From an uncultured bacterium (lineage in GTDB: Bacteria > Spirochaetota > UBA4802 > UB4802), in contig CALEUQ010000039.1 in NCBI GenBank assembly GCA_937920495.1, positions 8,802 through 72,801 of the forward strand: 64,000 bases of DNA, read 5' to 3'. The notes under the pieces are model-generated. The model worked only from the letters and a program-made list of their open reading frames with translations. It was not told the DNA's origin and did not search any database. Of the stretch, positions 1 to 23,605 are shown piece by piece (position 1 is the stretch's first letter; every line of letters starts with the position of its first letter). Both the position numbers and the translations under genes were made by a program.

Positions 1-2536
1 AAAATAGCGATTTGGTTAAAAGCTTTTTTACAAATTTTTGATATAGGCCCAGCGTGTTATCTTTTTCAATAATAGGAATAATACCATCGCGCATTTCTTC
101 TAACCTGTATACAAGAGAATTGGAAAGCCGTTCTTTTATGCTTTTATCTTTAAATAATGAGAAGATATTGTTAAAGTTATCCCATACGGGATCATCCCAG
201 CGGGCCGCAAAATATCGCGAACCGCCCGAGCGCTTTTTCAATTCAATGGCACAGGCATTTCTGTTACAACTTGCCTTTGCCTCATTATCCAGAAGACCGT
301 GCGCTCGTGCAATCATTTCGGATAAGCTTTCCTTATGATGGCAAATGAGAATAGCAGCCGATATTGAAATCTTTTCACCCTTCCCCAGCTGAATTGCCAT
401 TTTCCCCACCTGAGGCGTAAACTTTTCTGATAAAGGAAAAACTTTTCCTTTATCATCCACAAATACAAACGGCTGGCAATAGACGTTCTGTATTTCTCTT
501 GCGGAATTCAATGCATTAAACGCTGGAAGTATTGCACAGATATCATCGCCACCAGCATATATGAGCCTTCCACGATACCGCTCAATAATTTCTTTTACAC
601 TGAAAAGTGAAAAATCACCCAGCGCCTCAGAAATTGCAGCATGAACTGCAGGAGAAAGCATCCTCTTTTTCAAAGATTGGCTTTTAAAAATATCTTCCCA
701 CTCTTTTGTATACACATCTGCAAGGGTTTTATTTTTTAGCTTATCTACAATTTCCGGATGTATCACAGTTTCCCACGTTGATGCCACGCTCTCACCATTG
801 ATGAGCGATCCCATATTGTCGCCATCCATTAAAAGTATGGCATAATACTTATCCTCTTCATACATCTTTATTTTTGTATGCACAACTTTCGCAATCTGCT
901 TTTCAAACTCATCATTTTCATGTAAATTCTGCGCTATTTCCCATTTATCATTTTTATTTTCAATATTGTATCTTTTAAAAAAATTATCAAGAGCTATTTC
1001 TGTTGTGGAGGGAAATGCGTCGGCATTGGCAAAGATATGTGATAATATATGTGAGTTTCCTTTTAGAACGATTGCAGCAAGCCTTTTCACCACACATACC
1101 GCACAAAGTTTTTCTCCCTCAGTAAAATCAAATTTCCCATACCCCTGTTTCACCTTTTCCCAGAATGCCTGTATATGCTTTGTGTATGTTGAAGCTTTCA
1201 CATCTTCAGGATATTCAACAGTATGAAGGACTTCAAACTCGCCGCATAAGTGGCACTTTTCACCATTTTCAGGAAGTCTATGAATGGTTCGCCTGCTCTT
1301 AGCAGATGCAAGCGCACTCTGCACAAGCCGATGCGTTACATTATAAAAACACCCCTGAAATGAACTGGAGGACAATTTTGCAAACTTTTGCGCCAGTTCC
1401 CAGGAAGCTTTATATACTTCTTCTTCAAAATAGTTTTTTAGGGAGTCAATATCCCTTTCCCCGATCATACCCGCACAGGCATAATTAATATCCCAGAAAA
1501 AACCTGTTTGACGTTTAAACATTTTTTCAATTGCATTTTTTTCTTTATCATTAATTGAACATTTTTTAACTATTGAAGAACATATCTGCAAAGAAAGCTC
1601 ATTCCATTTTGAAAGTATTGTTTCTTTTATTTTTTCACAAAAATCCTTAGCTTCAGAATAGGGAAGTAAAAACAAAAATTTATTTGGAAACGTGGCTATT
1701 TCGGATGGCTTTGGCAAACACGATTCCTGAATGAGCGCATCAAAGCCCGCAATACGTTTGAGATACATTTCAACCAGTGGCTGGTCAAGCAATGAAGGGT
1801 ACAATACATGATCAGGGCCAAGGTTCTCTGTCACATACCTGATGCCTTCAAATGCCAGCCATGACAGCAAAATCGATGAGGTCCAGTAATCCCGCAATTT
1901 GCGCGCTTTTGCAATAAAACCCTGCACAGGAGTTATGCTAAATACCGCAAGCGCTACTCCTTCCTGGGCTTTTGCAAGCTCCATGGAGCTATACAGCGCA
2001 GAAACAAGTGCATTGTGATGCCATATCGAGTGATCAGGCATGCGAGTATCAGCGGGTAATCTATGCCACAGCCCACCAAGTCCTGAGATATTTTTTGATG
2101 CAAGCCTGTACCGCAGCAAAAAATATAAGTAATAGAATCGATTGCGCACCCGTTCTATTTCATTGCCGCCATCAATTATTGTTATATCGTTTTCAATTAG
2201 TCCTTTAATTTCTTCGTAATTAATATCTTTAACATCTACATCTATTCCTATTCTGCTATTTGACGATACCGGATGGGTTGTTACTGGATTTTGTAAAAAA
2301 TTAACTGCGCCGCTTGTCTTTTCATCAGCTTGATACCCGGGCAACACCGCGCGTTCAAAACCAGCGGCCAACACATCTGCCGTTTTCCAGAATTTTTCCT
2401 GGCAGCTTTCCACTCCCAGCGCTTTGAGGTATTCAACTGCCCGCCCTTCATGTCCTGGTATTTTAAGCGCTTTATCAAAAGGATCGTGCAAAAAAGCTGC
2501 AATTTTATTATTCCAGTATGAAGTGTCTAAATTCAC
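1..2536 (-). CDS. cas10: Type III CRISPR-Cas Cas10/Cmr2 large subunit. It is 3'-partial because its C-terminus runs off the window start.
   Basis: The minus-strand reading frame is continuous from a GTG at 2536 (GGAGGA SD at 2542-2547) to position 1, about 845 codons. It is absent from the ORF track because it has no in-window stop. The translation shows an N-terminal HD motif (AAFLHDPFDK), a treble-clef zinc finger (CHLCGEF...CAVCVV) and a palm GGDD motif (LIYAGGDDICAI), in the canonical Cas10 domain order. Confidence 0.8.
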   Translation of the reverse strand, partial: MNLDTSYWNNKIAAFLHDPFDKALKIPGHEGRAVEYLKALGVESCQEKFWKTADVLAAGFERAVLPGYQADEKTSGAVNFLQNPVTTHPVSSNSRIGIDVDVKDINYEEIKGLIENDITIIDGGNEIERVRNRFYYLYFLLRYRLASKNISGLGGLWHRLPADTRMPDHSIWHHNALVSALYSSMELAKAQEGVALAVFSITPVQGFIAKARKLRDYWTSSILLSWLAFEGIRYVTENLGPDHVLYPSLLDQPLVEMYLKRIAGFDALIQESCLPKPSEIATFPNKFLFLLPYSEAKDFCEKIKETILSKWNELSLQICSSIVKKCSINDKEKNAIEKMFKRQTGFFWDINYACAGMIGERDIDSLKNYFEEEVYKASWELAQKFAKLSSSSFQGCFYNVTHRLVQSALASAKSRRTIHRLPENGEKCHLCGEFEVLHTVEYPEDVKASTYTKHIQAFWEKVKQGYGKFDFTEGEKLCAVCVVKRLAAIVLKGNSHILSHIFANADAFPSTTEIALDNFFKRYNIENKNDKWEIAQNLHENDEFEKQIAKVVHTKIKMYEEDKYYAILLMDGDNMGSLINGESVASTWETVIHPEIVDKLKNKTLADVYTKEWEDIFKSQSLKKRMLSPAVHAAISEALGDFSLFSVKEIIERYRGRLIYAGGDDICAILPAFNALNSAREIQNVYCQPFVFVDDKGKVFPLSEKFTPQVGKMAIQLGKGEKISISAAILICHHKESLSEMIARAHGLLDNEAKASCNRNACAIELKKRSGGSRYFAARWDDPVWDNFNNIFSLFKDKSIKERLSNSLVYRLEEMRDGIIPIIEKDNTLGLYQKFVKKLLTKSLF

Positions 2537-2574
2537 GTATTCCTCCTTTCCTTCTATGGATACGTTGAATCAAG

Positions 2575-3573
2575 TTAATAAATTGTTTTTATATCTTGAC
2601 CGGAGTGAATCTTTTTTAGAACGCCGGACATTTTTTGAGTAACGTTTGCATACTCGCCATTATCAGCAAGGGGCCCCTGATATTTATATGGCAGTACTAA
2701 AATCTTTCCCTGATATTTTCCCTCTTCTGTCTTGTTTACATGCAAAAAGCATGTTTTGGCGTGCCTCCCGTCTTTTACTTCCTCTTCTTTTGCCTGGACA
2801 ATTGGTAGGGCAATATATTTTCTATTGCCGTAATCATGTTTATTAATTGCTATCTCCTGTGATAATCGCATGGTGCGGTATGCTATGCCAATCTCAGAAA
2901 GCGCATCTTCCCATTTTTCATGCACCTTGAAAGCAAATAACTGCGATTTCTTAGAAAACGAGGTATATTTTGCTTCATCGGTTGCTATTTTTTTATGAAA
3001 TTCAATTATCGGAACATCTTTTGAATATACAGATCCAAAGCCATTTCGGCTCTTTGCTCCCATTCCACCATAATGGATGAGTGCGCTCAAGGCTTTTTCC
3101 ACTTCATCTTTTACAGCTTCTGACGTGTACATACAGTGTAGTATAAACGTGCTGCCGGGTGCGATATGCTTTCTGGACCAATTATGATTAGATGGGTCGT
3201 AGATTCCCAATCCTAAATAGGTAAAAATATCTATGTTGAAATTCTTGTTTTGCCTGACTACCTCAACCTTTTTCCCCTCTGCAATTTTATCCTTAATTTC
3301 TATTTTCTTTGTTTCTATGAACATTGAGAAAGGTGACTTTGATAGTGAATCATTCATGGCAGAGCCAAATACTGCCGATTCCTGTTTTTTTAGTTCATCC
3401 AGATTATGTATTGGATGTATTGCTCGCCACCAGAAACGAAGCAATCCTTTTATTGAGGCAGCTCTAAGTTCAGGCCTGGATATATCCGCACCCGACATGA
3501 ACAACGGAGTGACAACCTCGATTTCATAACTTTTTTTTATCCTGTAATTATATTTACCAATGTAGAACGCCAT
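2575..3573 (-). CDS. cmr1: Type III-B RAMP protein, Cmr1-like (Cas7 superfamily). It is the first gene of the cmr operon.
   Basis: This 332-aa protein starts MAFYIGKYNYRIK...VVTPLFMSGAD...ELRAASIKGLLRFWWRA, the typical RAMP N-terminal signature. It lies immediately upstream of cas10 on the same strand and is preceded by a 970-bp gene-free region. Confidence 0.6.
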   Translation of the reverse strand: MAFYIGKYNYRIKKSYEIEVVTPLFMSGADISRPELRAASIKGLLRFWWRAIHPIHNLDELKKQESAVFGSAMNDSLSKSPFSMFIETKKIEIKDKIAEGKKVEVVRQNKNFNIDIFTYLGLGIYDPSNHNWSRKHIAPGSTFILHCMYTSEAVKDEVEKALSALIHYGGMGAKSRNGFGSVYSKDVPIIEFHKKIATDEAKYTSFSKKSQLFAFKVHEKWEDALSEIGIAYRTMRLSQEIAINKHDYGNRKYIALPIVQAKEEEVKDGRHAKTCFLHVNKTEEGKYQGKILVLPYKYQGPLADNGEYANVTQKMSGVLKKIHSGQDIKTIY

Positions 3574-4542
3574 TGTTCCCCCTAAATATTAATAAAAGTT
3601 TATTAATATCTAAAATAAACTGACATCCATTACATGAAGTACGATCTTTTTCAAGGCAGGTTTGCAACTTTAGCGTCCAGCCAAATACACCACGCAAGGC
3701 TATATCTGGAAAGTTGAAAAACCGTATAGGCTTGGTTGCGTGTAAAAGTATTTTAAATTTATATAATAGTAAGGTAGCTTTTTGTGATAATATCATTCAA
3801 ACTCCTTGTCTATTACAAAAACTAACAAATGATGTCATACATAAAAACAAAAGTCAAACACTTTTCATTTTTACAAATTCTATCAACTATACTTTTCATA
3901 TCAATAACAGTACAAATTAACCTAATTATATTCACTATTTAATTTAATTTTAATTGTTATATGATAATCGTCCCTATTCCATTTCAGGCAATGACTGCAT
4001 GCAGGGCAGCCTGAACAATCATAAAAAATGGGACTCTTCTGATCTAACAACCCACCTACTTTTACTATATGAGACCCTGTTCATACACATATACACTTTG
4101 TATAATGCAACCTCTGTTTTTACATTTTGTTTTGTTCGATAGTTACAGGCTATAAAACATCATTTTCTTAGCTATCCATATATATTAATGACAGTGATAA
4201 CCACAGTTTTATAGGAGTACTTTGCTTTTTATTTTTACCCGATTATACATACAATAGATAGAAAATCACTTAAATAGACGGTGAATGCAGGTGTTATGGA
4301 TTCATAAAATTATACCAGGTATGGTATAAAGAATTGTACTTCCAATCTACCACCGATTACGGTGTAAACCTTTCACATTGTGATTCACCTGTCATACACC
4401 TGAATCGTCACGCAAAGCGATTATTATTGTACAGCATGGCTTTTAGGTTACAGCAGGATACACACCTTTTACATAAACACAATTTTAATCATCATTAATA
4501 TTTCTACTTGACACCACCCATAACCTACTTTTTCCATAAACT

Positions 4543-6126
4543 ATGGAGCAACTTCATCATCTTATTACTCAATTAAATTCAAAACCTAAAGAAGAGCGTA
4601 ATAACTTTTACCGTGACGCTATATTACCAATTATAAGTGATTTGCTGCATCAGCAATATCAACAATATCTACAATCAAACAATTACAATTCATATTTAAC
4701 TCTCATCACAACGCTTTCACATGATATCAATATCTTACTGCTTTTACTGTACAGCATTAAGCCCAAATACCTTGTGGTATTTTATACCAGCGATAAAAAC
4801 AAGTTGATTGAAAAACTATACCCCCTAACTCAATCACTACAACTCAACATAGAAACAATACAGCTTGATAGTACCAATCACAACAATAACAATAGTAAAA
4901 TAAAGGATACAATCAAACGTTACAAAAAAAACTATCATCCTGTGCTATGCGACATCACAGGTGGCAAAAAGATTTTTTCAACACAAATTGGTATACTGGC
5001 GCATTCATTAAAAACCGACATTGCATACATTGATTCATCAAAAGGTTTTTTACAGTGGGGCATACCTCTGCCCGGCACTGAAATATTATACATTCAAAAA
5101 CCTGATAACATCTTCAATTTGCTTGAAATATATCATGCCAATAAATTGCGAATACGCTTTAACAGCATCTCTTCAAATATAGAGTATGAAGCCGATGTTA
5201 ATGGAAGGTTGTACAGGTTAGGCCAGAAAAAACTAAAACCAGAGGAAATCGATAAACTGGTAGATTATGTAAACCGCTTTTACATGGATATCAATGCTTC
5301 TATCATCAATAATTCATATTCCACAATTAACATGGGGAAATATGCTCTGTCATTTAAAACCCTTCTTTTTACAAAAGAGCTCAATCATTTCGTTTCAATA
5401 CACAACAATTTAACTCATTTAGTCATAGATAATGAATTGAGTGCGTTTCCGTGGGAATTTATCTTTGCTCACTGCAACGTAAGTTTACCACTGTTTCGTA
5501 TTCCCAATCGTGATAGTAATTTCATTGAAAATAATAAATGTAATAATCAAAAAAGCATTGCATTCATCACAGGTTATGGTGAAAATCTCCCGGATTTTGC
5601 AACCACAGTACATAATATTAAATTGCTGTTATCAAAAGAAAAACAATTTTCACTGGCTACTATCACCGCAAAAAACTCATTTGAATTAAAAAAATTTTTT
5701 GCCGAATATAGTTCCAATCCCTTTACAGTGGTTATATTTTTTGGCCATGCAGCATTTGGTAACTGCAGTGAAAACACAGGCTTGATATGCCAGGATGGAA
5801 GTATTTTTTCTATTGAAGATTGTGATGTGCTAAGCGGCTCCCCACCTGAATGCATACTCATTAATTCCTGTCAATCAGCTCGCTGCAGTTTGTTTACACC
5901 CAATTCTTTTGCTCATGCTGTTATAAATTCGGGAGTTGAAACCTATATTGGGACCCATTTTTTTTTAGAATATAAACGAAGTATTTGTTTTTTACAATCA
6001 TTTCTTAAAGCTATTGCATGCAACCACACTTATGCAGATGCGTATAAATATAGCATCGATAGCATTACTCAACAATTTGGCAAAAATGATATAAGTACAT
6101 ATAATTATGTATACTACGGATATTAA
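4543..6126 (+). CDS. Fusion of a CARF-domain sensor to a caspase/CHAT-like cysteine peptidase. It is a candidate cyclic-oligoadenylate-activated protease.
   Basis: This 527-aa protein has, at residues about 75-260, a beta1 strand ending in polar residues (LVVFYTSD) and the strand-4 [DN]x[ST]xxx[RK] CARF signature (DITGGKK). Its C-terminal 190 aa has a caspase-fold pattern: KSIAFITGYG, then a His in VVIFFGHAAFG, then a Cys in ECILINSCQSA, followed by a CHAT-like tail (NSGVETYIGTHFFLEYK). There is no SD before the only possible ATG, so the mRNA may be leaderless. The gene is adjacent to cmr1. Confidence 0.6.
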   Translation: MEQLHHLITQLNSKPKEERNNFYRDAILPIISDLLHQQYQQYLQSNNYNSYLTLITTLSHDINILLLLLYSIKPKYLVVFYTSDKNKLIEKLYPLTQSLQLNIETIQLDSTNHNNNNSKIKDTIKRYKKNYHPVLCDITGGKKIFSTQIGILAHSLKTDIAYIDSSKGFLQWGIPLPGTEILYIQKPDNIFNLLEIYHANKLRIRFNSISSNIEYEADVNGRLYRLGQKKLKPEEIDKLVDYVNRFYMDINASIINNSYSTINMGKYALSFKTLLFTKELNHFVSIHNNLTHLVIDNELSAFPWEFIFAHCNVSLPLFRIPNRDSNFIENNKCNNQKSIAFITGYGENLPDFATTVHNIKLLLSKEKQFSLATITAKNSFELKKFFAEYSSNPFTVVIFFGHAAFGNCSENTGLICQDGSIFSIEDCDVLSGSPPECILINSCQSARCSLFTPNSFAHAVINSGVETYIGTHFFLEYKRSICFLQSFLKAIACNHTYADAYKYSIDSITQQFGKNDISTYNYVYYGY

Positions 6127-6139
6127 TTGATTGCTAACA

Positions 6140-8182
6140 TTAAAATGGAAACAAATACCATAAAGTATTCCATTTGATAACAGGTGTATCTTTATACTTT
6201 TCTTGCACCTTTACTAAATAGTCATACAATGTTGTACCTAAACTTTGTTGTAACACTTTGTGCCATATTTTTTTTATTTCTTCCTGCAAGCTTTTTAATG
6301 AAGCACTATCTTTAAGCGATAAAAGCCAGATATAGTCAGCTCTTATTGATAATTCTTTTGTCAGGATTGTAACATTTTCATTTTTCATGCATAACTCACG
6401 TGCATGATTATAGAAGTCATTTGCTTGCTTTATGGATGAGTTTGAACCATATAGACCATACAAAACCATTACATAATGATATATAGAATGAACAGGATAG
6501 GTTGACACTTTTACCATTGATTCAACATTTGCTTTATACTTATTAAAACACGTAGTTACTATCTCATAATACTTTTTAACATTTTTTGAATAATCGTTCA
6601 TTAGCTCTACGTAGTATATACGCAAAAAATGCAATAATGGAAATAATAATGATCTTTTTAAGATATCTTCCAGCAATTGCATATCATTGTGATATTCAAC
6701 ACCACACCCTTTTGCTAGATTTCGTCTTGCTTCTTCAAAGTTTTTTGTATACGTTTCAATTTGTGCACAGTACTGATACTGACGCATGATGTCTTCAGAT
6801 TGAACAAAGCTTTGTAGTGCTTTTTTAGAAATGTCCCTCACTTCTTCCCAGCTGCCCCCGTGTATTAAAGTGTGATACATCTTTGCTTGCAATTTTGTTC
6901 CAATAATTTCACCAAGTATGCGTGGTTGCACAACTATATTCTCATCGCTTTCACTTAGAAAACTAAATGCCTCGCTTACTTTTTTTTCAAGATTGTGCAT
7001 TTCATTGAAAGACCATTCAAATGCATACATATTGGTAAGATGCACACCATAGAGTACCTTGATACGTAACCGCGCACTTAAATAATCTAAATCAAATGGA
7101 ATTGATTTGATAAATGAGTATGCCTGTCTGTATACATCTTCAAATGTATGTACATCACCTTTATGGTTATATAAAGTAAGCAGGATCATATAACAGTAGG
7201 TATATATCCAGTGAATGTCTTCTTTACGTTTACCATAATCAGGAAGTTTTTCTTCTAAACGTGGCAAAATGTTTTCTATTATAAATAATATATCACTGTC
7301 CAAATCTTTTAAAATTCTATCTTCATTTATTGCATTATAATAAAGAGCAAGCAAAGATGAAAATATACTGTTAATATAAAAGATATTTAGTTTACATAAC
7401 TGCTCTAAAACATCAGGTAGGATTTTTTTTACCGCATTATCCTTTAAAGCGTTGTCGATTAAATTCTTTAACGCATACTCATACAGATTATCATTCATCA
7501 AATTATTAATCTTTTCAGTAATGGTTGGTGAAGCATGAATATATATTTTATGTTGTTCTATCCATATATTGAATTTTTCTACTACTTTTTGATCATACCT
7601 ATCATTACCATTTATATGCGTATCTAATCTATAAAACGTATGAACAATTGCATCAGCTAATTGTAAAAAATAATTTTTTTTACTTTCCACCTCTACCTTG
7701 GTTTTTATGTTTCTATTAGGTAATGGTGATAATACTATGGCCTTTGTAACTAATTCGTTTATTCTTTCTTTATATTCTTCTTCTTTTATTCCTACTCTAT
7801 GTTCGATAGTAACCGTTAATTCACTAATATCCTGGAATAATTTTGATTTTTTTTTAATAAATGCAAAAATTCCCTCAGCCAGCACATGCAGGTAAGTTTT
7901 AGTATCATTTATAACATAAAAACCACGCTGAGGGATAAAGATTATCGGAATAATATCATTTTGTTTACAAAAATCTATCAAATTATCTATTACAGCCAAT
8001 AAAGTTGAATTTGATAATTCGTTACCATGAAAAATTTCAGATTCTAAATTAAATTGTCTAAAAAAATTTGCTACATCGTTACTTGTTAAAATTTTGTCTT
8101 TAATAAAAAAACCACCAACAATACTACGTTTTTGTTTATAACCCTGAAATTTTCCACTTTCATCAAGGTACAAATAAGCCAT
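6140..8182 (-). CDS. DUF3800-domain protein with a large C-terminal alpha-helical (TPR-like) domain. It is the last gene of the sigma/anti-sigma operon.
   Basis: This 680-aa protein has an N-terminus MAYLYLDESGKF... and a later QLADAIVHTFYR, matching the DUF3800 (yiDESG...QlAD) signature. About 480 helical residues follow. It begins 15 nt after the anti-sigma stop, with GATGGA upstream. Confidence 0.5.
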   Translation of the reverse strand: MAYLYLDESGKFQGYKQKRSIVGGFFIKDKILTSNDVANFFRQFNLESEIFHGNELSNSTLLAVIDNLIDFCKQNDIIPIIFIPQRGFYVINDTKTYLHVLAEGIFAFIKKKSKLFQDISELTVTIEHRVGIKEEEYKERINELVTKAIVLSPLPNRNIKTKVEVESKKNYFLQLADAIVHTFYRLDTHINGNDRYDQKVVEKFNIWIEQHKIYIHASPTITEKINNLMNDNLYEYALKNLIDNALKDNAVKKILPDVLEQLCKLNIFYINSIFSSLLALYYNAINEDRILKDLDSDILFIIENILPRLEEKLPDYGKRKEDIHWIYTYCYMILLTLYNHKGDVHTFEDVYRQAYSFIKSIPFDLDYLSARLRIKVLYGVHLTNMYAFEWSFNEMHNLEKKVSEAFSFLSESDENIVVQPRILGEIIGTKLQAKMYHTLIHGGSWEEVRDISKKALQSFVQSEDIMRQYQYCAQIETYTKNFEEARRNLAKGCGVEYHNDMQLLEDILKRSLLFPLLHFLRIYYVELMNDYSKNVKKYYEIVTTCFNKYKANVESMVKVSTYPVHSIYHYVMVLYGLYGSNSSIKQANDFYNHARELCMKNENVTILTKELSIRADYIWLLSLKDSASLKSLQEEIKKIWHKVLQQSLGTTLYDYLVKVQEKYKDTPVIKWNTLWYLFPF

Positions 8183-8197
8183 AACGCAGTGTCCATC

Positions 8198-8749
8198 TTA
8201 TTTTGTTATATTAATTTTAATAATCTTTTTAAAATCAAATAGCAGCACTATATTACCTGGCTCAACTGACGAAAATTGCGCTGTATTGTTAGTAATAGTT
8301 GCTATATCAAATCTACTTCCAGTAAGCAGATGTATTTTTATACCATTTACGGGACTGTATATCACCACATCAATTGCTTTGTTATTATATATAATTTTAA
8401 CTTTAATTATTTTGTCATTATAAGGATACTCTATTTCTACTACCGGAAGTTTTTCATTTTCTAACACATATACTTGAGATTGCACTACATATTTTGAACA
8501 TACCTGAGGAATGAAAATATTATCTTGATATTTAATATCCAATATGAATGTGTCATCATCAATATTAAATTCATCTTCCATTGTTAAGAAATAATCTTCA
8601 TAAAGCTGTCTACATTGTGTGCATTCATTTAAATGATGAAACACTTTATCAATTGTTTTTTCATCAGTAATTGTACCATCAGCAACGCCCAATACCATAT
8701 CCTGCAAATCATCATTGCAATTAGATGAGTATATATGTAACTGCGTCAT
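8198..8749 (-). CDS. Zinc-binding anti-sigma factor (ZAS family, HxxxCxxC).
   Basis: This 183-aa protein has an N-terminal HHLNECTQCRQLYEDY, which is the H-x3-C-x2-C ZAS motif. Its start ATG overlaps the sigma-factor TGA stop (ATGA), indicating translational coupling. The C-terminal ~120 aa is beta-rich. Confidence 0.6.
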   Translation of the reverse strand: MTQLHIYSSNCNDDLQDMVLGVADGTITDEKTIDKVFHHLNECTQCRQLYEDYFLTMEDEFNIDDDTFILDIKYQDNIFIPQVCSKYVVQSQVYVLENEKLPVVEIEYPYNDKIIKVKIIYNNKAIDVVIYSPVNGIKIHLLTGSRFDIATITNNTAQFSSVEPGNIVLLFDFKKIIKINITK

Positions 8750-9378
8750 GACAGTATCTCCTCTTCAACTTCAGGATATTTCTTCTTAACTGCAGATAAA
8801 ATACGTTTTTTGATTTTTTCTATGCGTTCATATACGGAGGGTTGGGAAAGTTTTATCATTTGGGCAACTTCTGCTTGCGTTTTTTTATACAAAAAATACC
8901 ATGTGTAAATTAATTTATCTTTTTCATCAAACGTATCCAGTGTATTTTTAATAATATTTAAAATATCATTTTTCACAATTTCATCTGTAAAATCTATTGA
9001 TACCGGATGGAACAAATCAAAGATGCTAATATTGTCATCATCCTGCTCTTCTGATTGATTGCTGTCAATATCAACTTGTCTAATAAATTTGTTTTTTTTA
9101 TTAACATAACTAATTACACTATTACGTATTATCTTGAACAGGTAAGTTTTAAATTTACTTTTTCCCTTGTAATTGGCAATACCATTCAGAAAAAGTTTAA
9201 AACATACATTCTGGAAAATGTCTTCAATATCATCTTCATTAAGATTGTAATTTTTTACATAATTAATTTTTTTTATAGTACGTTTTATAAAGTCTAAATG
9301 TTCAATGAGCAATTGTTGTGGCGTTTTATCATCCATTATTATAAATACCATCTCAATTGGTAATATTTCATTACTCAT
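8746..9378 (-). CDS. ECF-type RNA polymerase sigma factor (sigma-70 family, regions 2 and 4).
   Basis: Region 2 is DDIEDIFQNVCFKLFLNGIANYKGKSKFKTYLFKIIRNSVISYV. Region 4 HTH is KLIYTWYFLYKKTQAEVAQMIKLSQPSVYERIEKIKKRI. The start is ambiguous: the ORF track starts at 9438, M21 is at 9378 and M35 is at 9336. Confidence 0.75.
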   Translation of the reverse strand: MSNEILPIEMVFIIMDDKTPQQLLIEHLDFIKRTIKKINYVKNYNLNEDDIEDIFQNVCFKLFLNGIANYKGKSKFKTYLFKIIRNSVISYVNKKNKFIRQVDIDSNQSEEQDDDNISIFDLFHPVSIDFTDEIVKNDILNIIKNTLDTFDEKDKLIYTWYFLYKKTQAEVAQMIKLSQPSVYERIEKIKKRILSAVKKKYPEVEEEILS

Positions 9379-9603: not shown

Positions 9604-11664
9604 TTAATGCACCGTATTCTTCATTCTGTACGCATCACGGTCAAACTTCTCATAAATTTTTTTCTTTATAAAAAGCTCTACAATATCCTTATCCAGTTTA
9701 TTCTTATCTGCCTCTTCTTTTATTATACTCAGTGCTTGCTCTAATGTAATGGGCGGTTTATAGGGCCTGTCGGTAGCAATTAAGGCATCAAATATATCAG
9801 CAAGCGCCATGATACGTGCCTGCAGTGGTATCTGCTCACCTTTTAGTCCGTAGGGATAACCGGTGCCATCAAGCTTTTCGTGATGCTTTGCGGCAATCTC
9901 AGGAATGCGTGCAAACTCTGGCGGCCATGGGATCTTGCTTACAAAGTTATACGTATGCACCACATGGCTTTCTATTTCACGACGTTCATCATCGTTCAAG
10001 CTTCCGCGCTTTATGCTTAAATTTTTGATATAGTAATCATTGAATATTTCCAATGCATTATTTTCCACATCACAGCATTCAAGCGACTGCAACAAGGCTT
10101 GCAAATTTTTTACCTCTTTTTCAACATCCATTTCTCTTACCATTGGGTTGTTGAGCTCTATGACTTTCTGGCGCGCCTGAAGTATTGTATGCAACACATT
10201 ATCGCGTTCAGATTCAATAGCGGTAACGTGTTCAAGGCGTGCATCAAATTCAGCTTCTTTTTTGATTTCATTATATACTGCCATAGCATACTTCAACTGC
10301 TGATACCGGTACAGATATTCAAGCTTAAGCAAAATATTTTCAAGATCCTTTGGATACAATTTATGTGATTTTAAAAAGATTGCAGTGTCAATATACACCT
10401 TACCAAAGTCATGCAAAAGTGCCGCATATTCAAGCTCTTTTAATTCGGTTTCAGAAAACGTTGTTGTAGCAAATGGTCCTGATGTGTCCTCACCAATTGC
10501 CTGCGCAATCTTTAAGCACATATCAGCAACCCTGAATGAGTGGCCCGACGTGGCAACATCACGTGATTCAATGGCAGTTACCGATGCCCTGACAAATTCT
10601 TCAAACTGTTTTTGAATCTGACGTATCATGCGGTTATTTTCTATGGCGATAGCCGCCTGCGAGGCCACCGCTTCCATCAAACTTTCGTATCGTTTCTGAA
10701 ATGGCACTACTTTTGTATTAAAATCTTCTTCACACGTTAATTTAATTGAATACGCTTCATTGCCATCATACGCATTTTCAATATCTTCCTTGCTGTTAAT
10801 AAGCTGTATGACACCAATCGTTTTATTTACATGATTAATCATGGGTACTACAAGCATTGATTTTGAGCGATAGTTATGCGCCTTATCAAATGACGAATTA
10901 AATGCCACCGGATCATCAGGACCTAATTTATATACATCGGGTATATTGAGCACCTGCTGGGTTACTGCAACATACCCTGCTATTGAATTTTTATCCATTG
11001 GTATGGTGAACTCTTCATACGGCAGATCCTTTGAAAAGGTGTGCGAGTGCTTAAACCGTAAGAATTTATTCCCGTTTTTTTCTTCAACCAGATATATACT
11101 ACCTGCATCAGCACCGGTAATGGTCTTGCTTAAATGCAAAATTAATTTCAATAACCGGTCGGGATTTTTTTCAATTGATAGCGCTTTGCCTATATTAATT
11201 AACGCATCAAAATCTCTCTGAGTATCTGCAAGCTGATGTATATGCTGACGGCTTAACTTTTTAAACTCGCCATGCGAGTGGGCAATAAATTTTGCTTTGG
11301 ATATTATAAATTTAAACTCTACTTCACTGATTCCATTTCTATACAAAGCAATGACATCCTGCATCATGGTTGTAGTATATTTAGAGCCAACACATACAAA
11401 GCCCACATAAAGATTATTATTGTGTGCTTCAATATTGCGCACTATTGATTTTACTTCATCATAGTGATGCGATGGTATAATATATACCACAGCAGTACAA
11501 CTTCCAGGATCAGCATTAATTGCATGCAGTATTGCGGGCAGTTCATTATATGGAGTGTAAACGTAGTGAATATCTGCGCCACTTTCTTTAGGCAGGGCAA
11601 CAGCATCTTTCAACATACTATCTATAATAATACAGCACTGTAGTTTTAATGAGTCCACCAACAC
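9604..11664 (-). CDS. GAF-domain / HD-GYP-domain cyclic-di-GMP phosphodiesterase.
   Basis: This 686-aa protein has a GAF-like central region and a C-terminal HD-GYP signature (ALLHDFGK ... [14 protein letters not shown]). Confidence 0.8.
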
Positions 11665-11735
11665 ACTCTTAACATATATACTAATCTTAACTCACAATCC
11701 ATAAAATAAATAAAAAGTCAATGTAAAAAAAATAT

Positions 11736-13154
11736 TCATATTTCTATTTCCTGAGAAATAGTATGCAATTCTTCCTGATCGGGAGCTTGGGCAGGTTTGT
11801 GTACTTTGTCATCAAATTTCAAGAATGCTTCTGCCTCATCTGCTGTTACGGTTTGGGTTATAATCTCTTCTTCAGCAATTTCTTTTTTTGTTTCTGCCAT
11901 TTCCTCTTTAACAACCGTTGTTTCTTTTTGTGATGTTTCTTTCTTCTCTTCTTTTTCTTCTTCACCTTCAATGATAGCCATGTGGTCGCGGGATTTAAAA
12001 TATTTGGCTTTGGCAGTAAGCTGGCTGGGTTTTTCAATTATTGTTTCGCCAACGTTAAACTGCAAATTTGAATCCGACAAAAGCAGATTTGTTGTTTTTT
12101 CCATTCTGGACGCAACATATCCCAGCATCCTGAAAAGCTCATCAATACCAAAGTTAAGCGTAACCGGGTCATTGCTCTTTAATGAAACACCTTTCTCAAC
12201 AAGTTTATTTTCAAGCAGGGCATAAATCCGTGTAATTGGCTTGTCGTATAGCTGTGACTCAAGTTGTATATAGGTAAACCAAATGCGGTGCGATAGTTCC
12301 TTGAAAATAAGCTGCGTTATGGCAGGCATCTGTTCCATAACTGCAGTAAGCGATTCTTTCTTTATAGGAAGTAGTACAGTTTTGCCCCAGCTTATTGCAG
12401 CAGCATTACGCGGCTTTTCCGATATTAACGCCATCTCCCCAAACACATCGCCATCTTTTAATACAGAAAGTATTATCTCGCTTTCGCTGGATAATTTAAC
12501 AATTTTTACCCTGCCCTCTTTGATAATGTACATCTCATTTCCGGGCTCATCCTCGCAGAAGATCATCTGCTGGTCTGCATACACTTTATACGGTGCCTGG
12601 ATTACCGGAGCTATCGCCCCCTTTACCTTATCTTTAATGCTTTCCAACATTGTGGTAACTACACTGGCAAAAAGCCCCTGTGGGTACAGCTCCAGATAGC
12701 GCTTGCAGCAGTAATACGCATGGTTGTTGCTTCCATTATTATAAAAGTACCTGATGTGATTATACAGTGCTTCTTCAGGTGTTTCAAGCTCCACGCCTTT
12801 ATCCTTCAAGGCTATCATCATCTCATTATATGCTCTAAGCTCATTAGAAAAATAGTTTAACACCTTAATAGCTATCTGAGGCTTTTTTGATAAAAGATTC
12901 ATAAACTCCTGTTTGGTAAGTGATGTTATGACAGTATCCACACGTGCTATGGCAGATTCCATGCGTGGCTTATTGCATAGTGCCGCAATCACGCCAAAGA
13001 ATTCACCATCTTTCAGTATATTTTTATATATGGGAGCGTTCTTATTATAGCGATCTAACTGCACAACACCTTTATCAACGATGTACACAGTGTCCGCGTC
13101 TTCATCACCTTCTATATATATGTATGCTCCCTTTTTAAAAAGGCTCTTTTTCAT
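11736..13154 (-). CDS. Protein with tandem cyclic-nucleotide-binding (cNMP/CAP-effector) domains and an acidic/lysine-rich C-terminal tail.
   Basis: Two cNMP-binding signatures are present: YIYIEGDEDADTVYIVDKGVV...GEFFGVIAAL, and MYIIKEGRVKIVKL...GDVFGEMALISEKPRNAAAISW. The C-terminus is EEKEEKKE-rich. Confidence 0.75.
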   Translation of the reverse strand: MKKSLFKKGAYIYIEGDEDADTVYIVDKGVVQLDRYNKNAPIYKNILKDGEFFGVIAALCNKPRMESAIARVDTVITSLTKQEFMNLLSKKPQIAIKVLNYFSNELRAYNEMMIALKDKGVELETPEEALYNHIRYFYNNGSNNHAYYCCKRYLELYPQGLFASVVTTMLESIKDKVKGAIAPVIQAPYKVYADQQMIFCEDEPGNEMYIIKEGRVKIVKLSSESEIILSVLKDGDVFGEMALISEKPRNAAAISWGKTVLLPIKKESLTAVMEQMPAITQLIFKELSHRIWFTYIQLESQLYDKPITRIYALLENKLVEKGVSLKSNDPVTLNFGIDELFRMLGYVASRMEKTTNLLLSDSNLQFNVGETIIEKPSQLTAKAKYFKSRDHMAIIEGEEEKEEKKETSQKETTVVKEEMAETKKEIAEEEIITQTVTADEAEAFLKFDDKVHKPAQAPDQEELHTISQEIEI

Positions 13155-13709: not shown

Positions 13710-13965
13710 CCTGTTCCTCCTTTTAAATAAAATTTAATCCCTTAACCTGACCCCAACCCATCTCCTTAAACAAGGAGAGGGGTTCTGAATTTCCCTCGCC
13801 TTTTCTAAGGAGAGTGTTTAAAGGTGAGGTTCCAATATAATTAAACTACATTGGATGAATCTTCTATAATTAAAGGCTATACTACTGGCCTCACAGTGCC
13901 ATTCCACCAACTTAATATAATGTACTATATGCTCGCAATAAGTCAATACAACAAGCTATCGTCCA

Positions 13966-14496
13966 TTACGTGCTTTTAAGCCATTCAATAAGGATGGTCT
14001 GTACCTTATGTGTGATTTGATGTAAATTATTTTTTTCTTCTGTGGTAAAATCTGACAACACATAATCTGCAACCGGAGTACCATCTATGGGTCTGCCAAC
14101 GCCTATCTGTATACGGTAAAAGTCAGGGGTACCAATATGTTGCTGTATAGAGCGGATGCCGTTATGCCCTTTGTGACCTCCGCCAAACTTAAGCTTTACA
14201 TGCCCAAACTGTAGTTCTATCTCATCATGCAACACAATAAGATTTTGAGGATTTTCTTTGTAATACGATAGCACCTTTTGTACGGCAATACCGCTGTTAT
14301 TCATATAGGTTTGTGGCATTACAAACAGGCACTCGTACCCATCAATAGTACCGATTCCCATAATAGCATCATGTTCTTTTTTGTGTATCGTGATTGTATA
14401 TCTGCGAGCAATTTCCGCGCCAATAATCATGCCTGCGTTGTGGCGGTTGCCCGCGTATTTTTTTCCGGGATTTCCTAAACAGGCTATTATTTTCAT
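13966..14496 (-). CDS. pth: Peptidyl-tRNA hydrolase.
   Basis: The sequence MKIIACLGNPGKKYAGNRHNAGM...FVMPQTYMNNSG...HDEIELQFG is a canonical Pth. The start is chosen at M8 of the track ORF. Its ATG overlaps the stop of the upstream STAS gene (ATGA). Confidence 0.85.
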   Translation of the reverse strand: MKIIACLGNPGKKYAGNRHNAGMIIGAEIARRYTITIHKKEHDAIMGIGTIDGYECLFVMPQTYMNNSGIAVQKVLSYYKENPQNLIVLHDEIELQFGHVKLKFGGGHKGHNGIRSIQQHIGTPDFYRIQIGVGRPIDGTPVADYVLSDFTTEEKNNLHQITHKVQTILIEWLKST

Positions 14497-14840
14497 TGTG
14501 CGGATATGTATAAGCAAGCTTCTTCGATAGTATTTTTAATTATCAGATGTTTATCAAGCTCAGTTAATTTAAATAATTTTATTATGTCCTCACTGCATCC
14601 GGTTATGACCACTTTTAATTTCTTTGCTTCAGCCTTTTTATGTGATGCAATAAGCAGACTCAAACCTGCACTGCATATAAAAGATAATTCATTGAAATCG
14701 ATAATGATGTTGTTCATTTTTTCAAGTGCAGTATATATCTCTTTTTCTAACTGTTTAATATGTTCAGTTACAAGCGACCCTTCAATCTTTATTATAACAA
14801 TACCATCTATACTTTTTCTGGTAATTTTCATTGCACCCAC
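14493..14840 (-). CDS. STAS-domain protein (anti-sigma-factor antagonist, SpoIIAA-like).
   Basis: This 115-aa protein shows ITRKSIDGIVIIKIEGSLV...IIDFNELSFICSAGLSLL, which is the STAS fold signature. Confidence 0.7.
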   Translation of the reverse strand: MGAMKITRKSIDGIVIIKIEGSLVTEHIKQLEKEIYTALEKMNNIIIDFNELSFICSAGLSLLIASHKKAEAKKLKVVITGCSEDIIKLFKLTELDKHLIIKNTIEEACLYISAQ

Positions 14841-21184: not shown

Positions 21185-22144
21185 ATGGCTCTGACCCCAA
21201 CACCCGTACGAACATTACAACATTACCTGGAAGAAGCCATCTTTGTGGGACAGGCCCACCGGCTTGGCGTGTTTAAAGAACTTTATACAAAGCCAGATAC
21301 ATCAGATGGCCTTGCAAAAAGAATGCAATTTGACACACGCGCAACATGGATACTTTTAGAAGCGCTTGTTGAATTGGGATACCTTGAAAAAAATAATGAA
21401 ATCTATAGTCCCACAGAATATTGCACACATCATTTAATTGACGAAAAAAACGATGAATACGAGGGTAACTTTTTACAGTTCTTACTGTATCTCATCAACC
21501 CGTGGCGCACATTGCCTCATGTACTAAGTACCGGAAGTCCTGATGAATCCAGCTTTAAGGAATTATCCATGCATGATTTTATCAAAGGTATGGATTCCCC
21601 CTGGAAAAAGAAATTAGCGCCTGAAATAGTTGACCTGTGTATTGCACATTGCTCTGACCCCACAACCTGCATTGACATAGGTGGTGCCCCCGGAACAATT
21701 GCCAGAGAATTTGTGCGCAGGGGAATTAAAACAATAGTATTTGATCTGCCTCAATCACTAGCAATAACTCAAGATGAGTTGACAACCATCCCCAATATAG
21801 AAGTAATAGCAGGCGATGCAACAGTTGCATTACCGGATCGCAAGGTTGATATAGCATTTTTAGGAAATCTGTGCCATGGGCAAGGGCCTGAAGATAATCA
21901 GAAAATAATAACCATGTGCTATGATAGCCTTAATAAGAATGGTATCATAGCTATATTTGATAACTTACGAAACGAAAGTTATTTAGGTGCAACGCTTGCT
22001 CTTCACATGTTAACCCAAAGCAAAAAGGGCAATATCTATTCACGCCAGGAATATTTTGGATGGCTGGGCAATGCCGGCTTTAAAACACCTAAAGTATACC
22101 AGCTATCCGATAGGGCATGGCAGCTTATTATTGCAAAAAAATAA
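21185..22144 (+). CDS. SAM-dependent O-methyltransferase (Methyltransf_2-like, with an N-terminal dimerisation/wHTH domain).
   Basis: The protein shows CIDIGGAPGTIAREF...IKTIVFDLPQ, with an N-terminal wHTH-like region. Confidence 0.7.
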   Translation: MALTPTPVRTLQHYLEEAIFVGQAHRLGVFKELYTKPDTSDGLAKRMQFDTRATWILLEALVELGYLEKNNEIYSPTEYCTHHLIDEKNDEYEGNFLQFLLYLINPWRTLPHVLSTGSPDESSFKELSMHDFIKGMDSPWKKKLAPEIVDLCIAHCSDPTTCIDIGGAPGTIAREFVRRGIKTIVFDLPQSLAITQDELTTIPNIEVIAGDATVALPDRKVDIAFLGNLCHGQGPEDNQKIITMCYDSLNKNGIIAIFDNLRNESYLGATLALHMLTQSKKGNIYSRQEYFGWLGNAGFKTPKVYQLSDRAWQLIIAKK

Positions 22145-22510
22145 AGAGGGGTACATAAGCCGGATTCTGTTTTGACAGCCATCAATCTTGCATGCATGTT
22201 GCCATGCATGTCTATGCGGCCTACCCGCAACCTTGAGCGGGCAACTCTGATAACGGTTGCCTATTTGGCCTTGCACCGGATGGGGTTTGCACTGCCACCT
22301 GCATTACTGCAGATGCGGTGAGCTCTTACCTCGCCTTTTCACCCTTACCCCACTATGGGGCGGTATATTTTCTGCTGCACTTTCCGTCGCCTTACAGCGC
22401 CCGGGCGTTACCCGGCATCCTGCCCTGTGGTGTCCGGACTTTCCTCACAACAATGCACACACCACACTGTGTATGTACATTGTGCGCATGCCGTCTGTAC
22501 CCCTCTTACT
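22142..22510 (-). ncRNA. rnpB: RNase P RNA (bacterial type A), M1 RNA.
   Basis: The minus-strand read gives AAGAGGGGTACAGACGG...GTGAGGAAAGTCCGGACACCACAGGGCAGGATGCCGGGTAACGCCCGGGCGCTG...GGTAAGGGTGAAAAGGCGAGGTAAGAGCTCACCGC...GTGCAAGGCCAAATAGG...GCGGGTAGGCCGC...ACAGAATCCGGCTTATGTACCCCTCTT. This matches the E. coli P4, P10-12, P15 and P18 consensus blocks. The P1 5' and 3' ends are complementary and followed by a U-tract. The track ORFs 22257-22603 on + lie inside it and are spurious. Confidence 0.85.
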
Positions 22511-23490: not shown

Positions 23491-23605
23491 AGTTCCCCGA
23501 AAGCGCGATTGGCCAATCGCGTTTTCGGGGAACTATCGCGCTTTCGGGGAACTATCGCGCTTTCGGGGAACTATCGCGCTTTCGGGGAACTATCGCGCTT
23601 TCAGG
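23491..23605. repeat. A 44-bp near-perfect palindrome followed by about 4.7 tandem copies of a 19-bp unit (ATCGCGCTTTCGGGGAACT).
   Basis: Read directly from the sequence: AGTTCCCCGAAAGCGCGATTGG|CCAATCGCGTTTTCGGGGAACT, then three full copies of ATCGCGCTTTCGGGGAACT and a partial copy. There are no spacers, so it is not a CRISPR array. Confidence 0.9.

Follow-up and report, generated by a model that had tools for sequence, protein, structure and literature searches.

Which outputs would be addressed by the Cas10 protein of a CRISPR-Cas locus of type III-B that enters, at its left edge, a 64,000-nucleotide stretch of chromosome from an uncultured Spirochaetota bacterium (GenBank assembly GCA_937920495.1, contig CALEUQ010000039.1, positions 8,802 to 72,801; hereafter the window)? 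An earlier reading made from the letters of this 64-kb window alone, the sequence-only reading, had described the cas10 and cmr1 genes and passed over the genes to the right of cmr1, which encode a protein joining a CARF domain to a CHAT domain (CARF-CHAT), a DUF3800-TPR protein, a putative anti-sigma factor and an extracytoplasmic function (ECF) sigma factor. The cmr operon alone is routine, a member of the well-known type III-B, and the adjoining module is a rare, undescribed gene set. By analogy with known systems we consider it rather probable that cyclic oligoadenylate (cOA) made by Cas10 would activate both the RNase Csx1 and CARF-CHAT, and that the CHAT protease would then free the sigma factor.

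A type III-B effector operon at the edge of the window

The cas10/cmr2 gene (2..2536, minus strand) contributes the first 845 of its 885 codons to the window, while the remaining 40 codons, at its 3' end, lie left of it. On the minus strand no stop interrupts the frame between 2569 and 2 (856 codons), a length that chance would not be expected to produce because stop codons occur at a frequency of about 5–6 % in DNA of 38 % GC. The likely start is a GTG at 2536, placed 5 nt downstream of a GGAAAGGAGGA ribosome-binding site, from which 845 stop-free codons run to the window edge. The earlier estimate of about 845 open codons was accurate, as was the explanation that cas10 is missing from the list of open reading frames (ORFs) only because its frame runs off the window end. 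The translation contains the HD motif FLHDPFDK (H17-D18), a Zn finger (CHLCGEFEV...CAVC) and the cyclase motifs LLMDGDNMG (D571, D573) and YAGGDD (G662-G663-D664-D665). It is matched by Pfam Cmr2_N (E-value 6e-32) and Cas10-Cmr2_palm2 (2e-27), by NCBIfam TIGR02577 (Cas10/Cmr2; 232 bits against a cut-off of 79.4) and by several PADLOC Cas10 and Cas10b models (down to 8e-99). The best match among solved structures was full-length Pyrococcus furiosus Cmr2 (4w8y, 1e-50), with the HD region aligned. Five positions of this region (the HD dyad, H of PGHEGR, D of TADVLA and H of THP) are conserved with PfCmr2 and also in 9l7c, and D571/D573 and the GGDD align with MDGDDMG and GGDD of PfCmr2. Both the translation and this alignment bear out the HD, Zn-finger and GGDD motifs reported previously. 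Judged by alignment, Cas10 lacks none of the residues that the HD nuclease and the Palm cyclase require; the suggestion that its DNase and cyclase activities are plausibly intact holds, with all motif residues kept. The neighbouring cmr1 gene (2575..3573, minus strand) encodes a 332-aa RAMP protein (TIGR01894, 2e-19, 70 bits against a cut-off of 29; PADLOC Cmr1, 6e-34).

An independent 16.7-kb Logan contig (L001), which encodes the exact Cmr1 protein, extended the locus beyond the window edge. It aligns with window positions 8093..1 with one mismatch in 8093 bases (99.99 % identity) and reaches 7.4 kb further left, so that 71 kb in all were surveyed for an array and an intact cas6. The sole difference (window 6838, L001 1256; A versus C) falls within the DUF3800-TPR gene. 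Over the whole cas10/cmr1 stretch the two sequences are identical, with the same called start, which argues against a frameshift. On the minus strand the operon runs in the order cas6 stub, cmr1, cas10/cmr2, cmr3, cmr4, cmr5 and cmr6, followed by csx1 and cas1, and the full-length Cas10 comprises 885 aa. The cmr3–6 genes, which had been predicted to lie left of the window, were found immediately left of cas10. Cmr4 (TIGR02580, 188 bits), Cmr5 and Cmr6 all score above their family-model cut-offs; cmr3 scored 82 bits, under the cut-off of 100, its position fits, and Pfam Cas_Cmr3 is recorded for it. A stop or frameshift in cas10, its missing 40 codons included, and a lack of further cmr genes are both excluded by L001. 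The csx1 gene, on the opposite strand (TIGR01897, 227 bits), encodes a CARF-HEPN RNase in which DxTHG and the HEPN motif RNFFAH are present. No stop interrupts any of the six cmr genes, csx1 or cas1, all of which have their full length and their catalytic motifs, and the locus is almost certainly a type III-B (Cmr) CRISPR-Cas interference operon.

The sequence-only reading had found no CRISPR array in the window, and searches with TRF, a direct-repeat search and Rfam agreed. The array and the cas6 gene that it had placed left of the window did not appear there: the 7.4 kb of L001 contain no array and no cas6, the latter being represented only by an N-terminal stub upstream of cmr1. An array may lie beyond cas1, at the far end of L001. 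Between csx1 and cas1 there are a 48-aa ORF and then a 94-aa CARF-like gene fragment (L001 13511-13795; Pfam Cas_APE2256; TIGR02619, 25 bits against a cut-off of 37), which is probably truncated and could be the remnant of a ring nuclease.

A CARF-CHAT protein encoded divergently from cmr1

Divergent from cmr1 lies a gene (4543..6126, plus strand) for a 527-aa protein in which a beta domain separates an N-terminal CARF domain from a caspase-like CHAT domain at the C-terminus. The CARF domain spans approximately residues 35-207, and within it PADLOC CARF models match residues 35-203 (best E-value 1.6e-18); the CHAT domain is matched by Pfam CHAT (4.8e-8, 33 bits against a cut-off of 24). Three features proved invariant when 14 homologues (40-100 % identity) were aligned, namely the CARF loop CDIT-G-KK (here CDITGGKK), G401-H402, and C443 in the motif N-x-C-Q-S-A. 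In an AlphaFold2 model built from the family alignment (predicted local distance difference test, pLDDT, 84), H402 and C443 end strands 396-404 and 437-443, respectively, in a caspase-like arrangement. A Foldseek comparison of the model with the PDB gave as best match the Craspase protease Csx29 (8d9h_E, 1.3e-9), followed by the CARF domain of TtCsm6 (4e-7), separase, Cam1, the CHAT-containing anti-sigma DdvA, Csa3, Can2, Card1 and caspase-4. On this structural model the protein is a caspase-like protease with a predicted His-Cys dyad.

By sequence, the nearest CARF relatives are Csm6 proteins. Cyclic tetra-adenylate (cA4) is the likely ligand of CARF-CHAT because its CARF relatives are mostly cA4 binders, Csx1 is co-resident, and the effectors of a type III locus that reside together usually share one signal (PMC11229360). 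CorA-type signalling by S-adenosylmethionine-AMP (SAM-AMP) was considered and set aside: in neither the window nor L001 do the annotated genes surrounding the operon include a CorA, and the two accessory sensors both belong to CARF.

The complete architecture is rare. A word-seeded search of 5.8 billion clusters returned 14 CARF-CHAT clusters, and an exhaustive profile search of 1.84 billion representatives returned about 17 full-length clusters at 50 % identity, the next-best profile matches covering one half only, either the CHAT half (kinase-TPR-CHAT proteins) or the CARF half (Csm6). No PADLOC model spans the entire protein, and sequence searches of the PDB, with a single sequence or with a profile, yielded nothing useful for CARF-CHAT, DUF3800-TPR or the anti-sigma factor. 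The term CARF-CHAT was not found in the literature searched, where the related results were CalpL, SAVED-CHAT, DdvA and classification papers only. The closest relatives of the middle and CHAT part outside the family are proteins of about 1280 aa (P0050, P0052 and P0058): in P0050 a Ser/Thr kinase domain and TPR repeats are combined with CHAT at the C-terminus (1e-59), and P0052 is a TPR-CHAT protein with no kinase match. These kinase/TPR-CHAT relatives suggest an origin for the protease half.

The sigma, putative anti-sigma and DUF3800-TPR operon

Three minus-strand genes, for the sigma factor, the anti-sigma factor and the DUF3800-TPR protein, form one tight operon that meets the 3' side of the CARF-CHAT gene tail to tail. 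The sigma gene occupies 8746..9336 (196 aa from an MDDKTPQQ start), and the mechanically called ORF runs on to 9438 (about 229-230 aa). In all relatives the sigma factor starts at the conserved MDDKTPQQ (window 9336), and in most loci a T-rich, promoter-like TTGACA element lies just upstream of it, inside the longer ORF; the mechanical ORF is probably too long. The protein is matched by TIGR02937 (sigma70-ECF; 86 bits against a cut-off of 43) and by Pfam Sigma70_r2 and r4. When the PDB was searched, the long ORF gave no match at E <= 0.001, and the 196-aa form gave generic ECF sigma matches with weak similarity to E. coli sigma-E (1or7).

Overlapping the sigma gene by 4 bp, the next gene (8198..8749, minus strand) encodes a 183-aa protein with the motif H38-x3-C42-x2-C45 of zinc-binding anti-sigma (ZAS) factors, together with C10. 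Across 13 homologues H38, C42 and C45 are invariant and C10 is nearly so, and the motif is also present in the branch of 28 % identity (L034). A poorly conserved acidic linker (residues ~55-90) is followed by a beta-rich C-terminal half, and on inspection the sequence has no hydrophobic segment that could cross a membrane as a helix. The one hint of a family is a weak match to the model of the anti-sigma factor RsrA (16.8 bits, under the cut-off of 62.5); the protein is thus no equivalog of RsrA, and from its motif it is a putative cytoplasmic, ZAS-type anti-sigma factor.

The third gene (6140..8182, minus strand) encodes a 680-aa protein whose N-terminal domain is RNase-HII-like and whose C-terminal part is a Rap/NprR/MalT-type TPR superhelix. 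Pfam DUF3800 (PF12686) matches it with 31.7 bits against a cut-off of 21, and the N-terminal domain has an RNase H-like fold. The residues D6-E7-S8-G9, H51 and D176 are invariant, and the model (pLDDT 87.7) has its lowest-confidence linker at residues 190-192, between both domains. DUF3800 is reported to be an RNase H-fold nuclease, and proteins combining TPR and DUF3800 to be accessories of Cas12a2 (V-A2) and VI-F loci (PMC10910872, PMC12669027). The possibility that the 680-aa and 183-aa proteins are homologues of members of the Csx30/Csx31/RpoE set was rejected as a claim of membership, neither sequence nor fold lending support.

Co-inheritance of the module and its CRISPR neighbourhood

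Comparison of about 16 independent loci showed that the four module proteins drop in identity in parallel. The sigma factor and the ZAS anti-sigma factor adjoin CARF-CHAT even in the branch of 28-32 % identity, and one or both were detected in the distant branch (L027-L035) and in L011, L024 and L025, with the exception of the short contig L024. The DUF3800-TPR gene stands tail to tail with CARF-CHAT, 13 bp past its stop codon, in every locus of the branch with more than 37 % identity, and was not detected in the distant branch or in L011, L024 or L025. As judged by gene content, the invariant core is the protease, the sigma factor and the anti-sigma factor, and the variable partners include DUF3800-TPR, a Dna2-like protein, a subtilisin-type S8 peptidase, a membrane protein of about 135 aa and MJ1673/MJ1674-like proteins.

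Some of these partners have recurrent positions. A Dna2-like nuclease-helicase of about 1140 aa adjoins the module in L028 (3186-6443), L003 (2171-5611), L014 (14268-17687) and L020 (12086-15544), and in the distant branch it often replaces DUF3800-TPR directly downstream of CARF-CHAT. Subtilisin-type Peptidase_S8 genes adjoin CARF-CHAT in L009 (2572-4459), L011 (4347-6182), L015 (19048-20901), L020 (4365-6050) and L032 (829-1911), and not in the window; this adjacency suggests protease cascades in some variants. Of the ~135-aa membrane protein, which precedes CARF-CHAT in relatives, the window holds no trace.

Type III effector genes were found directly beside the module in three loci: the window (III-B), L034 (III-B) and L013 (III-A, with an intact cas6). 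In L034, cas10 and cmr4 are 47 % and 61 % identical to those described here, and two arrays (5314-5740 and 7316-8328) and cas1-cas2 are present. In addition, cas1-cas2 and/or arrays adjoin the module in L002 (array at 590-1321), L003/L016, L017/L019 (array in L019 at 1113-1671), L009 and L032 (array at 12606-12718). Many of the contigs are short, and these counts of cas adjacency are lower bounds. One repeat family, with the core CCCCTATCAGCGGGG, accounts for all the arrays that adjoin CARF-CHAT modules in unrelated contigs, and a search of the window and L001 for orphan repeats with the core CCCCTATCAGCGGGG (<=2 mismatches) or the full repeat (<=9 mismatches) found none.

A proposed route from Cas10 to the sigma factor

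Because Cas10 keeps the residues for a Palm cyclase, synthesis of cOA upon target RNA binding is expected, and the product would most likely be cA4. Two CARF proteins, whose presence in the locus supports this synthesis indirectly, would read the signal: Csx1, encoded left of the window, and CARF-CHAT. Binding of cOA by the CARF domain of the latter would switch on its caspase-like CHAT domain, and the active protease would cut the anti-sigma factor, its candidate cleavage site being the acidic linker (residues ~55-90). The ECF sigma factor freed in this way would redirect transcription, a release step to which we give somewhat better than even chances, and the DUF3800-TPR nuclease could serve as a downstream effector or as a second substrate. 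Precedents exist for cOA- or RNA-triggered proteases that release sigma factors, in CalpL-CalpT-CalpS and in Craspase-Csx30-RpoE (PMC11229360; bioRxiv 10.1101/2023.06.23.546230), and caspase-family proteases are listed generically among cOA-activated effectors (PMC12669027). Carried further, the triad would be a third, independently assembled protease-to-sigma output of type III signalling, portable between III-A and III-B, possibly with a second arm in which a CHAT cleavage product is sensed by the Rap/NprR-like TPR domain of DUF3800-TPR, such that a single cOA pulse would yield both a transcriptional programme and a nuclease effector. We put this extension forward tentatively and consider it doubtful.

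Several observations weigh against the proposed route. The anti-sigma assignment rests on one short motif and on gene position, and no profile or PDB match backs it. There is neither a CRISPR array nor an intact cas6 in the 71 kb of the window and L001, so that CRISPR RNA (crRNA) would have to be supplied from sequence elsewhere. The sigma operon has a promoter of the housekeeping type (TTGACA), which fits a pre-made sigma/anti-sigma pair without proving one. Finally, the link to Cas10 may act in trans or may not be obligatory, because several loci carry the module with no cas gene within 10 kb: L005/L006 (beside Zorya-like genes), L008/L014, L011 and L020.

The main alternative, which we regard as unlikely, takes DUF3800-TPR as the CHAT substrate, in a role like that of Csx30. 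Cleavage, or a released peptide bound by the TPR domain, would unleash the RNase-HII-like nuclease and arrest growth, and the sigma and anti-sigma factors would only regulate the operon. Much about the protein suits this role: its gene keeps the tail-to-tail position beside CARF-CHAT throughout the branch above 37 % identity, its catalytic-looking residues (DESG, H and D) are invariant, its fold pairs an RNase-HII-like domain with a TPR of the peptide-sensing type across the low-confidence linker at 190-192, and TPR+DUF3800 proteins are already known as Cas12a2 and VI-F accessories (PMC10910872, PMC12669027). DUF3800-TPR as the core substrate is nevertheless disfavoured because it was not detected in the distant branch, nor in L011, L024 or L025, unlike the sigma and/or anti-sigma factors, which are present in all of these but the short contig L024.

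Other explanations concern the tie between the module and the cmr operon. The cmr locus might be a decaying or orphan cassette without a crRNA supply, in which the cas10 motifs are intact since the loss was recent, and the CARF-CHAT module would serve another system or none. The reduction of cas6 to 80 codons, the lack of an array in the window and L001, the truncated look of the 94-aa CARF-like fragment beside csx1 and the intergenic scars of earlier arrangements all point this way. We consider it quite unlikely, however, given that the six cmr genes, csx1 and cas1 are full length and stop-free with catalytic motifs kept, that most III-B loci are without an array of their own and borrow Cas6 and crRNA from other loci (PMC12669027, Extended Data Fig. 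2 legend), and that synteny with L034, L002 and L019 predicts an array just past cas1-cas2, where L001 ends. CARF-CHAT, sigma and anti-sigma might instead constitute a stand-alone stress or defence switch for another nucleotide, brought next to cas genes by defence-island clustering at a recombination hot spot. In many related metagenome-assembled genomes (MAGs) the unit does occupy the same chromosomal slot, by GAF-HD, cNMP-binding and DJ-1 genes, with adjacent cas content that is variable or absent, and Zorya-like genes flank it in L005/L006. Its sensor, however, is a bona fide CARF domain whose closest relatives in sequence and structure are the cA4-binding Csm6, Cam1, Csa3 and Can2; a member of only 28 % identity, in a different genomic context (L034), again lies beside cmr genes and arrays; and cas genes or arrays occur within 10 kb in approximately eight of the 14 informative loci, many of them on short contigs. 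We judge a stand-alone switch very improbable, and the signalling route from Cas10 through CARF-CHAT to the sigma factor remains the one that we prefer.

Comparison with known signalling proteases

The effector operon itself resembles the III-B system of P. furiosus (Cmr1-6 and Csx1) in its gene order (cmr1-cas10-cmr3-cmr4-cmr5-cmr6), in the HD, Zn-finger and GGDD motifs, in the presence of the CARF-HEPN protein Csx1 and in being an effector operon without an internal array. It differs in that cas6 is here an 80-aa stub fused to the cmr1 leader, and that a second and unusual CARF effector, CARF-CHAT, adjoins.

As cited in PMC11229360, Rouillon et al. (2023) described CalpL-CalpT-CalpS as a type III-B SAVED-Lon protease, an anti-sigma factor and an ECF sigma factor. 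The present module shares with it the adjacent genes for an anti-sigma and an ECF sigma factor and cA4 as the likely signal. In contrast to CalpL-CalpT-CalpS, it has CARF in place of SAVED as its sensor and CHAT in place of Lon as its protease, an RNase-HII-like TPR protein is added, and the anti-sigma factor carries the ZAS motif HxxxCxxC, with no detectable similarity to any PDB chain; homology of the sigma and anti-sigma factors to CalpS and CalpT was not shown by the PDB searches. With Craspase (the III-E gRAMP, the TPR-CHAT protein Csx29, Csx30, Csx31 and RpoE) the module has in common that Csx29 is the best structural match of the CHAT domain and that a sigma factor is encoded alongside. 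Here, however, the proposed activation is by diffusible cOA through CARF and not by TPR docking on an RNA-bound effector, the N-terminus is CARF and not TPR, and no fold or sequence like those of Csx30 or Csx31 was found. Only the CHAT fold is common to both. The sigma factor matched the III-E RpoE-like model NF041236 weakly (42 bits against a cut-off of 100). By analogy, the module would resemble CalpL-CalpT-CalpS and Craspase-Csx30-RpoE in function while being a member of neither family.

The III-B SAVED-CHAT/PCaspase system of Haliangium ochraceum (Steens et al.; bioRxiv 10.1101/2023.06.23.546230) has, as is proposed here, a cOA-activated CHAT protease beside a III-B effector, with a sigma gene nearby, and the second, subtilisin-type S8 protease adjoining some CARF-CHAT relatives again hints at cascades. 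Unlike that system, the locus described here has CARF, probably responding to cA4, in place of SAVED responding to cyclic tri-adenylate (cA3), no PCaspase, PCi or kinase, and a dedicated anti-sigma factor. The N-terminal domain of CARF-CHAT matches CARF models and structures only, and SAVED does not apply to it. The accessories of Cas12a2 and VI-F loci are comparable by architecture, DUF3800 (RNase H fold) and TPR standing beside a CRISPR effector, but the protein of this locus goes together with a signalling protease of type III and with a sigma/anti-sigma pair, and DUF3800 is N-terminal, followed by TPR.

If the proposed mechanism is true, type III CRISPR immunity would have arrived repeatedly and convergently at protease-mediated sigma release as an output, CARF-CHAT, a compact and soluble protease probably switched by cA4, would lend itself to study or to the building of tools, and the DUF3800-TPR proteins seen by Cas12a2 and VI-F would become tied to CRISPR signalling.

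Probable traces of cassette exchange between cmr1 and CARF-CHAT

The sequence-only reading had placed cmr1 first in the operon. No intact cas gene precedes it, but an ORF does: an 80-aa N-terminal stub of cas6 (3554..3796, minus strand; homologous part 3614-3781) overlaps its start. The stub matches the PADLOC Cas6 profile with 3.8e-7 over positions 3-51 of 296 only, and also Pfam AF_1859_N. With residues 5-60 of a complete Cas6 (309 aa) it shares 66 % identity (9e-25); that Cas6 is encoded on L013, a syntenic MAG contig (NCBI GCA_026414805.1) in which the four-gene module is followed by intact cas6 (13898-14827) and then by csm1-csm2-csm3 of a III-A system. DNA homology with L013 (blastn, 69 % over 276 bp) takes in the 5' end of cas6 as well as sequence upstream of it (window 3646-3918). 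At the protein level Cas6 homology stops at about 3614, 40 bp before the cmr1 ATG, and those ~40 bp hold the cmr1 ribosome-binding site. Elsewhere in the window and in the 7.4 kb added by L001, nothing resembling Cas6 was detected. These homologies are most simply explained by a recombination within cas6 that put a cmr cassette in the place of a csm cassette, and the cmr operon would now be read from the former cas6 promoter region. As such, the stub would cleanly exemplify how one whole cassette (csm) gives way to another (cmr) while the chromosomal slot stays fixed and the accessory module is retained.

The divergent intergenic region between the cmr operon and CARF-CHAT (3797..4542) includes further homology of this kind. 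Positions 3797-3918 correspond to the upstream region of cas6 in L013, and a 46-bp stretch at 4075-4120 matches cas1 of L003/L004 at its 5' end and in the sequence upstream (87 % identity, blastn), with an unchanged orientation towards CARF-CHAT; by this match it is probably the scar of an older array-cas2-cas1 arrangement. In a promoter and terminator scan of the region, hits, promoter-like hexamers included, were no commoner than in shuffled controls, and the scan was given no weight.

Chromosomal context

The window is chromosomal, with RNase P RNA, carB, rpoD and dnaG present, and its flanks share 70-75 % DNA identity with syntenic MAG contigs recorded as Spirochaetes/Spirochaetota. Adjoining the sigma operon, the region 9604-13154 encodes a 686-aa protein with GAF and HD_5 (HD-GYP-like) domains and a 472-aa protein with two cNMP-binding domains. 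Both are conserved host flank genes with nucleotide-signalling domains that occupy the same position in many related contigs, and the cNMP-binding protein has weak PADLOC matches to Pycsar-type effector models, by way of its cNMP domain. Further to the right, a bacterial RNase P class A RNA (22141-22506, minus strand, 301 bits) is accompanied, at a distance of about 1 kb, by 4.6 copies of the 19-bp tandem repeat ATCGCGCTTTCGGGGAACT (23516-23602).

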